Of a stretch of DNA of 32,000 bases, positions 2,431-14,807 are shown piece after piece. The notes below the pieces were generated by a model that had not been told where the DNA came from, did not search any database, and saw only the letters and a list, made by a program, of their open reading frames with translations. The DNA is from an uncultured Balneola sp. GTDB taxonomy: Bacteria; Bacteroidota; Rhodothermia; Balneolales; Balneolaceae. The position numbers and the translations under genes were made by a program. Position 1 is the stretch's first letter. The number at the start of each line of letters is the position of its first letter. The stretch spans positions 145,760 through 177,759 of the forward strand of contig CAZDGU010000001.1 in NCBI GenBank assembly GCA_964505215.1, read 5' to 3'.

Positions 2431-2931
2431 ATGCGGTATTTTTTGTTAGCAAGCATATTAGTTATCACTTCGGTTGTAAACCTGCAGGCTCAGGATAGTG
2501 ACAAAATATCTGCCCAAATAAATGTCAGTGCTGAAGTCATACAATCTATTGAGCTTATCACCGTAAACACCATGCAGTTCGGGAATTTACAACCCGGCCA
2601 AAAAGAGATTTATGTGAACCCCGTTAACAACCTGAACGCAGGTTTTATGATTGCCATTGGTACCCCGGAAGCCGAATTCCGCCTCAACTATTTGCCCGAA
2701 CGCATTCTTTCACAAATTGATGGCAACGCTTCCCTGACTTTTGAATACGAAATATCCGGCAATACCGAAGATGATCAGGCTACTTCCGAATTGCTGGAAC
2801 TTGACAATCGAAATATTCGGTTTAACAGCGAAGGACGATTTTACATTTGGGTAGGCGGCCGCGTGAATCTTGAAAACGCCGCTCCCGGTAATTATGAAGG
2901 CGATTTCACTATTGAAATAGATTATATATAA
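2431..2931 (+). CDS. secreted DUF4402 / Csu (spore-coat-U)-like fimbrial subunit paralog 1
   Basis: Signal peptide MRYFLLASILVITSVVNLQAQ. Early motif MQFGNLQPG. C-terminal motif FYIWVGGRVNLENAAPGNYEGDFTIEIDYI matches the remembered DUF4402 pattern (L.FG...; ...G.Y.G.f.vtv.Y). Its stop overlaps the next start (TAATG). Confidence 0.65.
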   Translation: MRYFLLASILVITSVVNLQAQDSDKISAQINVSAEVIQSIELITVNTMQFGNLQPGQKEIYVNPVNNLNAGFMIAIGTPEAEFRLNYLPERILSQIDGNASLTFEYEISGNTEDDQATSELLELDNRNIRFNSEGRFYIWVGGRVNLENAAPGNYEGDFTIEIDYI

Positions 2932-3581
2932 TGACTGCATTTCACAAAATAGCTCATTCTAAAATCGTTGCTGTTTATCAGATACGCAGGTACGGATTGT
3001 CTGCTTTTTTGGGACTGATGATTATACTTTTTAATGTAAACAGCGCACACGCCCAAGAAATTGACTTTGGAGACTTCAGCAGCAAATATGCCGTCAGTAT
3101 TACAGAGCTGAATCCCGCCGAAGATTTAGAATTTGGCATGGTTATCCAGAATGAAGGCCTCAAACAAATAGACCTCTTAAACGCCAAAGTACTGATGATT
3201 GAAGGCGTAAAATACTTAGATGTAATTGTGGATGTAACAGCCGACAATTACCTGTTTTTAGGAAATGACATCAGCTGCAACGGCACCAACACCAATTGCA
3301 TTCCCTTTACCCTTCAGGCCGCTTACGCCAACCGTGGAAACAATAACACCAATCAGGCCGTGCTTATGCAGGTAGCTTCTAATGTAGCCACTGCGCAATT
3401 CCCCATATTAGCTCGTGGAAATCAGCCGCCCGGCCCGCCACCCACTCCCGTTTATGAAGGCTACAACCCGGCCTTATATAACGAAACGGCATTTCTCTAT
3501 ATATACGGAGCATTAAACGTAGGCAATCAGGATGCCGGCAGCTATTCGGGCGAAATTACCATTACTGTGAACTATGACTGA
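2931..3581 (+). CDS. secreted DUF4402-like fimbrial subunit paralog 2 (largest; Cys pair and Pro-rich insert)
   Basis: Hydrophobic signal region ...LSAFLGLMIILFNVNSAHAQ, LEFGMVIQNEG, and C-terminal AGSYSGEITITVNYD. It is the only paralog with cysteines (C116, C123) and carries a PPGPPPTP segment. It overlaps the next gene by 8 nt. Confidence 0.6.
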   Translation: MTAFHKIAHSKIVAVYQIRRYGLSAFLGLMIILFNVNSAHAQEIDFGDFSSKYAVSITELNPAEDLEFGMVIQNEGLKQIDLLNAKVLMIEGVKYLDVIVDVTADNYLFLGNDISCNGTNTNCIPFTLQAAYANRGNNNTNQAVLMQVASNVATAQFPILARGNQPPGPPPTPVYEGYNPALYNETAFLYIYGALNVGNQDAGSYSGEITITVNYD

Positions 3582-4107
3582 CAAGGGCCTTCATATTGCT
3601 GTTGTGCTCACCTTTTGTGTCCTTGCTTTTGTTACACCGGTGCAGGCACAATTTATAAACCTGCAACTTCGGGTTGAGCCGGAACTGAGTGCCACGGTAG
3701 AGCAAAACTTAGATTTTGGTACGCAAGTAACCAATTCCGGTATAACTCAAATTCGGCTGGGTGATGTAAACATGGGCGTATTCAGCATCCGGGCCATACG
3801 CACTCAAAATATTTATTTAAGCCTGCAATACCCTGAAGCCTTGGTAAATGAAAATGCTCCGTCAGTTGCACAAATTCCGATGCAATTAGAAATGGCGTAT
3901 AATAACACCGGTACAAATAAGGTAGAAAACGCAAAAGTACTCCCCATAAGCGGAAGACTTATTTCAATTCATGAAAACACAGCTGCCGAAAGCGAAAAAG
4001 ACATCTGGAAAGAAATGTACATCTACGTTTATGGCGCCATTGATGTAGGCAACATCCCCAACGGCATATACACCGCCGACATCATCCTAAGCGTAGATTA
4101 CGATTGA
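3574..4107 (+). CDS. secreted DUF4402-like fimbrial subunit paralog 3
   Basis: Signal peptide ending PVQAQ, LDFGTQVTNSG, and C-terminal MYIYVYGAIDVGNIPNGIYTADIILSVDYD. Confidence 0.65.
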   Translation: MTDKGLHIAVVLTFCVLAFVTPVQAQFINLQLRVEPELSATVEQNLDFGTQVTNSGITQIRLGDVNMGVFSIRAIRTQNIYLSLQYPEALVNENAPSVAQIPMQLEMAYNNTGTNKVENAKVLPISGRLISIHENTAAESEKDIWKEMYIYVYGAIDVGNIPNGIYTADIILSVDYD

Positions 4108-4147
4108 ATTGGGATTGATTAATTGTTAATTGCCCTTCACAACCCGT

Positions 4148-12489: not shown

Positions 12490-12495
12490 AAATAT

Positions 12496-13293
12496 ATGAG
12501 AACTTCTCTTTTAAATATCCTTGGTTTTTGTGTTTCGGCGGTTATACTGGTTTGGGGTGCACTGATAGTTACCGGTGTGACTTATTATAACGTTATTCCC
12601 GGCAATCTTGAGTTTTTGAACCTTCCGAGTCTTGCTATCGTAATTGGCGGTATTTTTGCCAGTGTTTTTATCAGCTATCCTTTTAAAGATGTAATAACAG
12701 CCATTGGCCAAAGTTTTCGGCTATTTACATATAGCGGGGTGACTGACGAAGTGCTTGCCAACGATGTTAGCATGATTATTGAATGGCAAAAAAGAATGAA
12801 AATCAATAAACAAGAAACGGTAAACGAGCTTGCAGCACAGTATGAAGGTGAGTTTTTGGGGTACTTGTTTTCCATTTTAGACACCAACTACACTATCCAA
12901 GAGCTTAGAGAACTTGGGGAAGCAAACATTGAAGAAAGCTACACCCGTCAGCAAAAAATAAATACCATTATACAAAGTATGGGAAAATCTGCACCCGTTT
13001 TTGGGATGCTGGGAACACTGTTTGGGTTGATTGTGATTCTTTCCGGCTTTGATGATACCCAAGCCCTGCTTTCCGGTTTGGCTGCTGCACTTATGACTAC
13101 TTTGTACGGTATAATTATCGGGAATTTCATTTTCACCCCCATGGCCAGTAAAATGAATAACATTGCATCGTTGCAATATTTTCGAGAAAAGCTCTTGCTT
13201 GAAGGTGTTTTGCTGATAGAACAGAAAAAAACTACGCTTCAAATTTATGATACCCTTCAGGCTCGTTTACAGCGTAAAAATCACCAGATTTAA
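12496..13293 (+). CDS. MotA/PomA-type stator channel subunit (MotA/TolQ/ExbB family)
   Basis: The 2+2 TM topology with a roughly 100-aa cytoplasmic loop between TM2 and TM3 is MotA-type rather than ExbB/TolQ-type. Signature SAPVFGMLGTLFGLIVIL (TM3 with conserved Pro) and TTLYGIIIGNFIFTPMASKM (TM4 with conserved Pro). Confidence 0.8.
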   Translation: MRTSLLNILGFCVSAVILVWGALIVTGVTYYNVIPGNLEFLNLPSLAIVIGGIFASVFISYPFKDVITAIGQSFRLFTYSGVTDEVLANDVSMIIEWQKRMKINKQETVNELAAQYEGEFLGYLFSILDTNYTIQELRELGEANIEESYTRQQKINTIIQSMGKSAPVFGMLGTLFGLIVILSGFDDTQALLSGLAAALMTTLYGIIIGNFIFTPMASKMNNIASLQYFREKLLLEGVLLIEQKKTTLQIYDTLQARLQRKNHQI

Positions 13294-13319
13294 GTTCAAT
13301 AATTTAATTCTCCTATCCC

Positions 13320-14807
13320 TTGAAAAAGGAATCAAAACCAGAGTTTAAGCATTCTTTTTATCCGGATTCTGCCGATGAATCTAAGGAAGAAAACAGCTGG
13401 CAAGTCAGCTATCTGGATATTTTGACTATTCTGCTGGCTTTTCTCATCATATTACTTTCTGTTTCTAAGTTTACCGACGATGAGCCTTCTTCAGTTTCCG
13501 CTTTATTTGCTTCCTCCCCGGAAGAAACTCCATTTATCACCACGCCCATTAAGCAGGTTCAAAAAGAACTGGAACAAGCATTAGACCGCCAAATTGATGC
13601 AGGCTACATAACCGTTATTCGCGATTTGAACGACCTTCGCATTCGGTTCAGCAGCGACGATTTATACCGCTCGGGCAGCGCAACTTTACAACAGCAGGCA
13701 CTTCCGCTGTTTGACGATGTTCTGGAAGCCATACAATCAAACCGCTATAACGATTTTGACATTGAGGTGGAAGGCCACACCGATAATACCCCAATCACTT
13801 CGGGAGCTTATCCTTCAAACTGGGAGCTTTCCACCGCCCGCGCCGTAAACGTGGTGAAGTATTTTAAAGGCATGGGGATAGAAACCAATCGCCTGAAAGC
13901 CTCAGGGTTTGCAGATTCAAAACCACTGGTTCCCAACGATGACAGATATGGACTACCTATTTATAAGAACAAAGCCGTAAACAGGCGCGTGGATATTCGC
14001 CTGTACTATTCAGGCAAACCTCCGGCCGACTCATCCGCTCAGTTCTTCGATTTTAAACAGCTGAATAATACATGTAAATTCGGTGTTCAAATAGCCGGCT
14101 TCAATTCTCTGAATGCAGGCTTGAGCGCTGTCGATAAAAGTGAAAAAGAAACCACCCTTCCCTTTCAGGTTTATAACAGAAATACTGCATTTGCTGTACG
14201 TTCTTCAAGCTTTTACTCTATAACTGCAGCCAAAAATACGTTATCCTTTATTTCACGCTTTTTCCCTGAACATGTAGCCGGTTTGGTTTTGAGCTGCGGT
14301 GATAATCATGCACCGGCTTTCACTGCCACTCGCTATCAAATTCAGCTGGCAGCCTTTCAAAAACAAGAAAATGCTGAACAATACCAAAACAGTATGCAAA
14401 CCAGACACGGACTGAATTTAGTGCTTACTCAGCAAGCATCGGGAGCATATCGTGTACTTACAGAACCCTTAGAAAATATTGAAGACGCTCGCCGAAAACT
14501 GAAATCCCTGAAAGAAAAAGGCTTTAGTGAAAGCATTTTTATACAAGCCTATATCCCAAATACTTCAACAGATAGTGCTGTATTCCACATACAGGTTGGG
14601 GTTTTTGAAAATCGAGATTTGGCAAGTGTAAAATCAGCAGAAATGGATGTCAATTTCTCGCTGAACACAAAAATTTACGAGTTCGAAAAAGGAAGGTTTT
14701 ATTTACTGACCGAACAGCTCAGCAATTGGCAAGAAGTTCAGGCGCTGTATGCTCGCCTCTCTCAGAATACTTCCGGCTTCACCCCTGTTATTTATTGGAG
14801 AGAATAA
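13320..14807 (+). CDS. MotB-type stator subunit with OmpA-like peptidoglycan-binding domain and three C-terminal SPOR-like repeats
   Basis: TTG start. SWQVSYLDILTILLAFLIILL is the MotB-like TM with the conserved Asp (D33, nt 13416-13418). The OmpA/MotB core is EVEGHTDNTPI...NWELSTARAVNVVKYF...NRRVDIRL. Three roughly 75-aa repeats follow, starting FGVQIAGF, YQIQLAAFQ and FHIQVGVFE (SPOR-like). Confidence 0.85.
   Translation: MKKESKPEFKHSFYPDSADESKEENSWQVSYLDILTILLAFLIILLSVSKFTDDEPSSVSALFASSPEETPFITTPIKQVQKELEQALDRQIDAGYITVIRDLNDLRIRFSSDDLYRSGSATLQQQALPLFDDVLEAIQSNRYNDFDIEVEGHTDNTPITSGAYPSNWELSTARAVNVVKYFKGMGIETNRLKASGFADSKPLVPNDDRYGLPIYKNKAVNRRVDIRLYYSGKPPADSSAQFFDFKQLNNTCKFGVQIAGFNSLNAGLSAVDKSEKETTLPFQVYNRNTAFAVRSSSFYSITAAKNTLSFISRFFPEHVAGLVLSCGDNHAPAFTATRYQIQLAAFQKQENAEQYQNSMQTRHGLNLVLTQQASGAYRVLTEPLENIEDARRKLKSLKEKGFSESIFIQAYIPNTSTDSAVFHIQVGVFENRDLASVKSAEMDVNFSLNTKIYEFEKGRFYLLTEQLSNWQEVQALYARLSQNTSGFTPVIYWRE

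Follow-up and report, generated by a model that had tools for sequence, protein, structure and literature searches.

A 32,000-nucleotide stretch of DNA from an uncultured Balneola sp. (GenBank assembly GCA_964505215.1, contig CAZDGU010000001.1, positions 145,760 to 177,759 of the forward strand; hereafter the window) carries, between positions 2431 and 14807, a locus in which the genes of a chaperone-usher-type pilus run directly into those of a FliF/FliG-like rotor protein, a TPR lipoprotein and a MotA/MotB-type stator. An earlier note on this DNA had listed ten genes here on a single strand, and our open reading frame map reproduced all ten on the + strand, from fibre subunit 1 through MotB, together with their overlaps and gaps (Table 1). 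The chaperone-like gene stops 2 nucleotides (nt) 5′ of the usher gene. The end of the usher gene overlaps the rotor gene by 8 nt if the latter starts at TTG 10097, and is separated from it by 4 nt if it starts at ATG 10109 (the start in the public 616-amino-acid (aa) record P0001) or by 49 nt if it starts at ATG 10154. The lipoprotein gene begins in an ATGA overlap with the rotor gene, and is followed after 6 nt by the MotA gene and after another 26 nt by the MotB gene. The absence of a terminator between the usher and Mot genes also holds, with no strong terminator found in 6287-14807, but a strong terminator-like hairpin does lie at 6164-6193, after subunit 4. Scans of the window proteins confirmed that the window contains no flagellar genes outside the locus (no FliM/N, export gate, rod, hook or filament genes).

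The joining of a FliF-FliG/MotAB motor to a chaperone-usher locus appears to be an undescribed combination, the function of which is inferred below. Searches of the full-text literature on DUF4402, on FliG with usher and on FliG with Balneolaceae found no description of the system, in agreement with the earlier note, which knew of no system with such an architecture.

Table 1. Features of the locus, of its upstream neighbours and of related stand-alone cassettes (positions refer to the window or, where a locus is named, to that locus)
Feature	Position	Strand	Basis
Fibre subunit 1 (DUF4402)	2431..2931	+	DUF4402, 24.7 bits vs cut-off 25.2
Fibre subunit 2 (DUF4402, with insert)	2931..3581	+	DUF4402, 24.5 bits; 1-base overlap with subunit 1
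Fibre subunit 3 (paralogue of subunit 2)	3574..4107	+	phmmer cross-matches; overlaps subunit 2
Fibre subunit 4, likely major subunit (variable, Thr/Ser/Gly-rich DUF4402)	5629..6144	+	DUF4402, E 0.006
Terminator-like hairpin 3′ of subunit 4	6164..6193	+	13-bp stem and T run
Probable periplasmic chaperone, two Ig-like domains	6287..7114	+	PapD_N, E 0.03; 275 aa; signal peptide
Predicted outer-membrane usher, 995 aa, extra C-terminal TPR tail	7117..10104	+	AlphaFold (AF2) fold; tail = residues 884-995, nt 9766-10104
FliF-FliG fusion rotor protein (predicted)	10154..11959 (alternative starts TTG 10097, ATG 10109)	+	Pfam FliG_N/M/C; AF2 fold
TPR lipoprotein with charged helical stalk	11956..12489	+	Lipobox Cys20; TPR paralogous to usher tail
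MotA-type stator A subunit, flagellar type, short cytoplasmic loop	12496..13293	+	MotA_ExbB, 64.6 bits
MotB-type stator B subunit	13320..14807	+	Pfam matches to MotB_plug, OmpA and SPOR
DUF4900 protein, upstream neighbour, possibly truncated call	85..1254	+	Pfam DUF4900, E 2.9e-11; system membership uncertain
132-aa secreted protein, family unassigned	1273..1671	+	Signal peptide ending ...GIAQ; syntenic with DUF4900 gene
Stand-alone cassettes	L050 10001-15046; L051 10001-15124; L042 7387-12534; L041; L046		

Components of the locus

On its predicted fold, the 995-aa protein is a true outer-membrane usher. An AF2 model computed from an alignment of 32 homologues (mean predicted local distance difference test score (pLDDT) 81) runs from an N-terminal periplasmic domain (residues 36-151) through six long strands, a plug-like sandwich (295-360) and 18 further strands, and ends, after this barrel of 24 strands in total, in two beta-sandwich domains and the TPR helices (884-988). 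The insertion of the sandwich after strand 6 is the exact position of the plug in known ushers, and the top 19 Foldseek matches of the model in the PDB were all FimD or PapC (E 1e-29 to 1e-9, up to ~900 aligned columns). The usher-like character proposed earlier is borne out by the fold and not by Pfam, which detected TPR and prealbumin-like matches in the window protein and no Usher domain. Among the homologues, one has a precomputed Pfam match to PF00577 (Usher) and one JGI record is annotated FimD/PapC. A PDB profile search with the usher family returned nothing relevant, and an hhalign comparison of the family profile with the single E. coli FimD sequence was not significant. Because the usher fold is clear despite this failure, the hhalign negatives for FimD, and for FimC and FliF below, weigh little.

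The rotor protein, as modelled, unites a FliF RBM3/collar-type domain with a complete FliG in a single polypeptide. FliG_N, FliG_M and FliG_C were all above the Pfam gathering threshold, on residues 327-615 of the 620-aa form. In the AF2 model (pLDDT 74), a signal peptide is followed by a periplasmic domain (43-182; nt 10280-10699), a transmembrane (TM) helix (207-233), a disordered linker and FliG N/M/C (279-600). The periplasmic domain is an alpha-beta-beta-alpha-beta unit in which two of the strands are very long and a loop, modelled with low confidence, bears an invariant PGLPFLP. Foldseek searches with the model retrieved full-length FliG structures (E ~1e-7) and ~20 FliF RBM3, S-ring or collar entries (E ~1e-4, TM-score ~0.5 on the target), with SpoIIIAG and PrgK lower. 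Of the two signatures first ascribed to this protein, that of FliG is therefore confirmed by Pfam, whereas that of FliF is recognized by predicted fold alone: Pfam YscJ_FliF was not detected, and an hhalign comparison of the family profile with the single E. coli FliF sequence was not significant. RBM1 and RBM2 are missing, and the signal peptide stands in place of the first TM helix.

An hhalign comparison with E. coli FliG (89% probability) placed R281 at R560 and D289 at E568, both invariant across the family; the column of D288 varies, and the FliM-binding EHPQR motif has been lost (EHPQ aligns to ESSM). The rotor protein has 78 full-length homologues at 35-51% identity, and those with names are all from Balneolaceae or Balneola. 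Public annotations of the family read ‘hypothetical’, ‘FliG C-terminal domain-containing’ or ‘FliG’, and, at JGI, ‘flagellar motor switch protein FliG’.

Judged by their sequences, MotA and MotB form a stator of the flagellar type, and their Pfam matches (MotA_ExbB, MotB_plug, OmpA and SPOR) agree with their first assignment to the MotA and MotB types. MotA gave full-length NCBIfam matches to MotP/MotA/PomA at 1e-30 to 1e-24, compared with 0.004 for ExbB; relative to E. coli MotA, a basic residue is kept at the R90 column and the equivalents of Pro173 and Pro222 are invariant. MotB (NCBIfam MotD/MotB, 1e-40) has a plug, a TM segment with the channel Asp33 (SYLD33ILT) and an OmpA-like peptidoglycan-binding domain, and ends in a tail of ~250 aa with SPOR-domain homology (residues 250-495, nt 14067-14804). 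The paralogous TPR tail that had been noticed on the usher and the lipoprotein was recovered at 37% identity over 78 aa (usher residues 916-993, E 3e-14). The lipobox Cys20 of the lipoprotein is invariant across pilus-linked loci and the stand-alone cassettes described below, and its residues 5-64 gave a weak match to the Lpp/OprI alanine zipper (E 0.0011).

The four fibre subunits had all been assigned to DUF4402, and this stands for subunits 1, 2 and 4, through matches of their own or of their orthologues. In the window proteins, DUF4402 fell just below the Pfam gathering threshold for subunits 1 and 2 and was weak for subunit 4; among orthologues it was matched by 22/22 for subunit 1 (best 1.3e-8) and 8/14 for subunit 4 (best 1.2e-12). 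Subunit 3 had no direct Pfam match and belongs here only as a paralogue of subunit 2, to which it is linked by phmmer cross-matches of 1e-10 to 1e-11 and a common C-terminal motif (...G.Y.....I..DYD). Subunit 2 is kept in all related loci. Subunit 4 is the most variable gene of the locus and has its own upstream spacer as well as the downstream hairpin which, by analogy with the major-pilin genes of chaperone-usher operons, is a candidate attenuator setting the ratio of pilin to machinery. PDB sequence and profile searches with the subunit families returned nothing relevant, and an NCBIfam search gave no named model for any pilus gene.

The product of 6287-7114 is probably a periplasmic chaperone. 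Its position just 5′ of the usher gene, its size and its signal peptide fit the PapD-like role originally suggested, and the Balneola vulgaris orthologue carries the RefSeq name ‘molecular chaperone’. The PapD_N match is weak, being found in 6/22 orthologues at E up to 1 (best 0.0024); no PDB sequence match was found, and hhalign of the family profile against the single E. coli FimC sequence was not significant (0.2% probability). The C-terminal domain also gave weak matches to Por_Secre_tail, a type IX sorting domain, in 15/22 orthologues (best 1.5e-5), and several related loci (L040 and L042) have genes for large type IX cargo proteins at their flanks. We set aside the reading of these matches as a type IX signal, the simplest explanation being a resemblance between Ig folds.

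Conservation of gene order and selection

A scan for relatives, with one genome per species, yielded 39 related loci. All are from Balneolaceae, and they include those of Gracilimonas tropica DSM 19535 (L007) and Balneola sp. EhC07 (L033); a scan of metagenomes returned a single short locus. When the window proteins were mapped onto these loci, the order from the subunits to MotB was the same in every locus that was long enough, and the block from the usher to MotB was present in 34/34. No FliM/FliN, export or rod genes were found in any of the 39 loci or their flanks. The usher and rotor genes are also adjacent in a more distant clade: a subgroup of rotor proteins (P0215, P0216 and P0257; loci L043, L047 and L048) carries an extra N-terminal periplasmic LysM domain, which is peptidoglycan-binding, and in this clade an usher C-terminus with a TPR tail lies directly 5′ of the rotor gene in 3/3 contigs. 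Homologues of the rotor and Mot genes are thus syntenic with DUF4402 and usher genes elsewhere, and the adjacency seen in the window is not due to chance. The chaperone-usher-type locus is merged, as the earlier note had it, with genes for a FliF/FliG-like rotor and a MotAB stator of the flagellar type, and the two are joined in evolution as well as physically.

The ratio of nonsynonymous to synonymous substitution rates (dN/dS) was calculated by the Nei-Gojobori method for unsaturated pairs of nine genes. All nine are under strong purifying selection, with values of 0.005-0.26 across the locus: 0.03-0.06 for subunit 1, 0.03-0.07 for the usher, 0.015-0.064 for the rotor protein, 0.06-0.26 for the TPR lipoprotein, 0.005-0.035 for MotA and 0.014-0.046 for MotB. 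Because dN/dS is low for all nine, the genes of the locus are not decaying.

One pair of loci was discordant. Between L016 and L033, identity is 80-90% for the pilus genes but 52% for the rotor protein, 60% for the TPR lipoprotein and 76% for MotB, pointing to an exchange of the motor block or to its evolution apart from the pilus block.

Related loci with and without the motor

Many usher homologues from Gracilimonas are 1,170-1,550 aa long and carry SPOR domains. Locus L040, from a Gracilimonas metagenome-assembled genome (usher at 10001-13516), encodes the DUF4900 protein, the small secreted protein, four subunits, the chaperone and the usher, followed by rpoN and DUF3109; no gene for a rotor protein, TPR lipoprotein, MotA or MotB was found there, at the same chromosomal site as the window locus. 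Its usher is 74% identical to that of the window over residues 1-875. Motor-less ushers are without the TPR tail and have in its place a SPOR tail of ~250 aa. Collinear alignments (E up to 7e-22) match this tail, over its whole length, to the final 250 residues of MotB from each of the motor-bearing loci. This variant is common in Gracilimonas (proteins P0093-P0113) and looks like the product of a deletion-fusion, or of the reverse insertion. From these alignments, a peptidoglycan-binding SPOR anchor is carried by the usher where there is no motor, and by the stator where there is one, the usher then bearing the TPR module.

As these Gracilimonas genomes retain a complete pilus locus but no motor, fibre assembly does not require the motor. 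It had been proposed that the motor powers the fibre; in the sense of driving assembly this is unlikely, because sister genomes keep the pilus locus at the same site without it, and rather than in export, its output more probably lies in moving, rotating or tensioning the fibre. Assembly by the chaperone-usher pathway is considered to need no cellular energy. Judging by the order of RefSeq accessions, B. vulgaris also appears to have a motor-less pilus locus, and its DUF4900 protein and ‘molecular chaperone’ (WP_018127659, WP_018127665) have been detected by proteomics (PMC9027524 supplement).

The rotor family is wider than the pilus-linked loci. An exhaustive profile search found 142 cluster representatives at E < 1e-30, mostly 580-750 aa long; because they match end to end, the fusion architecture extends well past the close relatives. 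Some members lie in a stand-alone five-gene cassette that encodes the rotor protein, a ~360-aa protein, the TPR lipoprotein, MotA and a short MotB, and that is set among housekeeping genes 3′ of rpoBC or tyrS. A signal peptide is present on the ~360-aa protein, whose C-terminus reads ...LLRF or ...LLRL in the manner of outer-membrane barrels. In at least one case (OZ245946.1), a stand-alone cassette and a pilus-linked locus appear to share a genome. Comparison of the two arrangements points to the motor as a portable module that pairs with different outer-membrane proteins, the usher replacing the small barrel in the window version. The tie between motor and chaperone-usher fibre that was first envisaged is thus upheld as a conserved linkage, but it is not specific, since the cassette pairs the motor with the ~360-aa outer-membrane-like protein. 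Two database entries of the rotor family, P0247 and P0257, read through into the TPR lipoprotein, probably from the ATGA-type overlap.

Neighbouring genes and intergenic repeats

Two genes upstream of the pilus genes may encode further parts of the fibre system (window 85-1671); many relatives have them too, motor-bearing and motor-less alike. The DUF4900 gene lies 5′ of the pilus genes in many related loci and in the motor-less L040; the 132-aa secreted protein has orthologues in related loci and gave no match in a Pfam search. The remaining genes of the window are housekeeping genes, including rpoN, DUF3109, EPSP synthase, RNase G and HslVU.

The window also contains a dispersed, hairpin-rich intergenic repeat. 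Two direct copies (4148-4421 and 5157-5428, 87-98% identical) flank ~735 bp and expand the spacer between subunits 3 and 4 to 1.5 kb, compared with ~60-130 bp in relatives, and related pieces occur in three other intergenic regions of the window (1711-2005, 19532-19573 and 26523-26899). The repeat had no match in Rfam and no copy among the related loci.

Discussion

We lean, if only slightly, towards a model in which the locus encodes a rotary machine spanning the envelope, with the paralogous TPR modules passing its torque or force to the usher-fibre complex. The parts are identified, and they are linked in a conserved way and under purifying selection; ring formation, rotation, TPR docking and a mechanical output are what we infer. 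The outer half of the machine would be a chaperone-usher pilus, with four DUF4402 subunits, a probable chaperone and a 24-strand usher, whose fibre is built unaided. The inner half would be a stripped-down flagellar motor, in which the FliF-FliG fusion builds an inner-membrane rotor resembling the MS-ring and peptidoglycan-anchored MotA/MotB turn this rotor by ion flow via the conserved FliG torque helix. The TPR modules of the usher tail and the lipoprotein would dock on the periplasmic face of the rotor. TPR domains bind short extended peptides and, as it is both invariant and exposed, the PGLPFLP loop is the best candidate for the docking site. Torque or force from the motor would in this way reach the usher and the fibre that it holds, turning or dragging them, rather than serving the export of subunits. 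The exchange of SPOR and TPR tails would fit such a machine, the usher having a static anchor when motor-less and a rotor-coupler when the motor is present. Coupling is also supported by the stand-alone cassette, which keeps the TPR lipoprotein though the position of the usher is held by another outer-membrane-like protein.

Several observations weigh against this rotary machine. As an outer-membrane protein, the usher is separated by the peptidoglycan, and by some distance, from the inner-membrane ring that is meant to turn it, and a ring able to spin freely is hard to square with the peptidoglycan-binding LysM domain that certain rotor proteins carry. The assignment of the chaperone is weak. 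Motor and pilus blocks can differ in their history, as the pair L016 and L033 illustrates. Lastly, in Aliifodinibius, a Balneolaceae genus of the literature survey discussed below, the listed KEGG orthologues form an essentially complete flagellar set.

The distance between the membranes, the intervening peptidoglycan and the LysM-bearing rotors keep a force-pulse model as the main rival, possible although clearly less probable to us. Here the locus would be an energy transducer, in which a MotAB-driven ring, in a manner like that of ExbBD-TonB or TolQRA, pulses force across the periplasm without continuous rotation of the usher, so as to open the usher plug, regulate the entry of subunits, or shed, re-seat or tension the fibre. 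Nothing would need to be turned through the peptidoglycan, and the stand-alone cassette, in which the motor is coupled to a small outer-membrane-like protein, would be accommodated, as would a LysM domain that argues against free rotation. The Tol-Pal system also has a TPR protein and an OmpA-like peptidoglycan anchor. That 5:2-type motors energise outer-membrane proteins and processes is well established (PMC12204202). However, the known force transducers, ExbBD-TonB and TolQRA-Pal, have ExbB/TolQ-type A subunits and an elongated TonB or TolA transducer, with no FliG and no cytoplasmic rotor, whereas the window locus encodes a FliG ring protein. The conserved full FliG with its torque helix, the FliF ring-building domain and the flagellar-type MotA are equipment for turning a ring, and in motor-less loci the usher works without any motor.

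The literature on motility bears on whether such a machine could be a propeller. G. tropica, which carries the locus, was reported to be non-motile and to have only 17 genes assigned to COG category N (PMC4642740), and flagellar-assembly genes were found in Aliifodinibius and not in Balneola, G. tropica or several other genera (PMC9909488). The Mot and FliG genes of G. tropica are therefore not spare parts of a conventional flagellum. For B. vulgaris, one compilation lists the species as motile with flagella (PMC5167729), whilst its genome is reported to be without flagellar genes (PMC9909488) and another study reports it as non-motile, with no flagellum (PMC9027524). We considered whether the ‘flagella’ of B. 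vulgaris could be this organelle and rejected the idea, as the sources on motility conflict (PMC5167729 vs PMC9027524) and the order of accessions suggests the motor-less form; nor does the window itself come from this species.

A true propeller, in which the fibre is spun for swimming or surface motility as a second ‘flagellum’ built by chaperone and usher with no type III export, is accordingly an improbable extension of the rotary machine. It draws on the same evidence, rotor and stator having every torque-generating hallmark, and on the high variability and separate termination of the major subunit; the listing of B. vulgaris as motile, together with its lack of flagellar genes, would also suit it. 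Set against this are the non-motile description of the carrier G. tropica and the contrary, apparently motor-less case of B. vulgaris, and thin pili of the archaic type are generally poor propellers.

It is still less probable that the pilus operon and a motor cassette, the latter with a separate envelope function, are two independent systems that happen to be neighbours. The motor does occur as an autonomous cassette, even in what is apparently the same genome as a pilus-linked version, the pilus locus does occur without the motor, and the two blocks diverge discordantly in the pair L016 and L033. Such independence is difficult to reconcile with an adjacency found in 34/34 loci and in a distant clade, with overlapping genes that have no terminator in between, and with the trading of parts between the blocks: where the cassette has its outer-membrane-like gene, the pilus-linked version has none and bears the usher instead, the TPR module of the cassette has been taken up by the usher, and the SPOR tail swaps between MotB and usher. 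The last alternative, a decaying remnant of an ancestral flagellum, follows the literature on an ‘incomplete flagellar pathway’ in Balneolaceae, where partial flagellar sets are interpreted as gradual loss (PMC9909488), and would suit the JGI name of the rotor protein, but it is effectively refuted by the selection and conservation data: a dN/dS of 0.005-0.06 for the rotor protein, MotA and MotB, invariant catalytic and torque residues, a novel fusion architecture that is conserved over >140 sequence clusters, and a fixed synteny with non-flagellar genes.

By the fold of its usher the locus is a chaperone-usher system, and its motor resembles the core of a flagellar motor that has no switch, export or axial parts. 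The locus shares with the core of the flagellar motor FliG N/M/C with the Arg and acidic residue of the torque helix, the predicted RBM3/beta-collar fold of FliF, the basic loop residue and both prolines of MotA, and the plug, channel Asp and OmpA-like anchor of MotB. Unlike in the flagellum, FliF and FliG are one polypeptide, of FliF only RBM3 is present, EHPQR is lost, and MotB has the SPOR-homologous tail of ~250 aa; the locus and its surroundings have no FliM/N, FliPQR/FlhAB, rod, hook or flagellin genes, and the motor genes are accompanied by those of an usher, pilins and a TPR lipoprotein. With chaperone-usher pili it has in common the usher topology, several small secreted subunits, a two-domain periplasmic protein encoded just 5′ of the usher and a hairpin located 3′ of the major subunit gene. 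It differs from them in an usher that is too divergent for Pfam Usher or for profile comparison with FimD, that ends in a TPR tail (or, in motor-less relatives, a SPOR tail) and that is putatively co-transcribed with a rotor and stator.

GldLM, the motor of type IX gliding, is thought to move surface adhesin filaments via a link that spans the periplasm. Like the system in the window, it is an ion-driven inner-membrane motor of the MotAB family in a bacterium of the FCB group; unlike it, GldL and GldM are not of the flagellar type and have no FliG or FliF domain, and the outer-membrane partner is the type IX translocon. For the rotor protein itself, a parallel is provided by engineered or spontaneous covalent FliF-FliG fusions of Salmonella, which support flagellar function, consistent with a 1:1 stoichiometry. 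These have the same domain order of periplasmic ring, TM segment and FliG, but are laboratory mutants of a complete flagellum, whereas the window rotor protein belongs to a natural, conserved, non-flagellar family of >140 clusters. To our knowledge, none of the non-flagellar relatives of MotAB (ExbBD, TolQR, GldLM, AglRQS and ZorAB) involves FliG or FliF, and a FliF/FliG rotor has so far been seen only in flagella.

A conserved and selected operon of this kind implies the use of a flagellar rotor outside flagella, and an usher that is energised or moving. The rotor is minimal, being a single protein with no switch complex and no export gate, and could serve studies of torque generation; it may also be an evolutionary intermediate or an offshoot that bears on the origin of the flagellar motor. 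Nature provides controls in the motor-less sister loci and in the cassette with a different outer-membrane partner, and the cultured carrier Gracilimonas tropica DSM 19535 makes the system directly testable. We hold it doubtful, but worth stating, that the locus represents a new class of surface organelle, in which a chaperone-usher fibre held in its usher is driven, or most radically spun, by a minimal FliF/FliG-MotAB motor. If this is true, bacteria would have a second, independently assembled ‘flagellum-like’ machine that does without type III export, and the stand-alone five-gene cassette would be a general rotary engine for outer-membrane proteins in bacteria of the FCB group.

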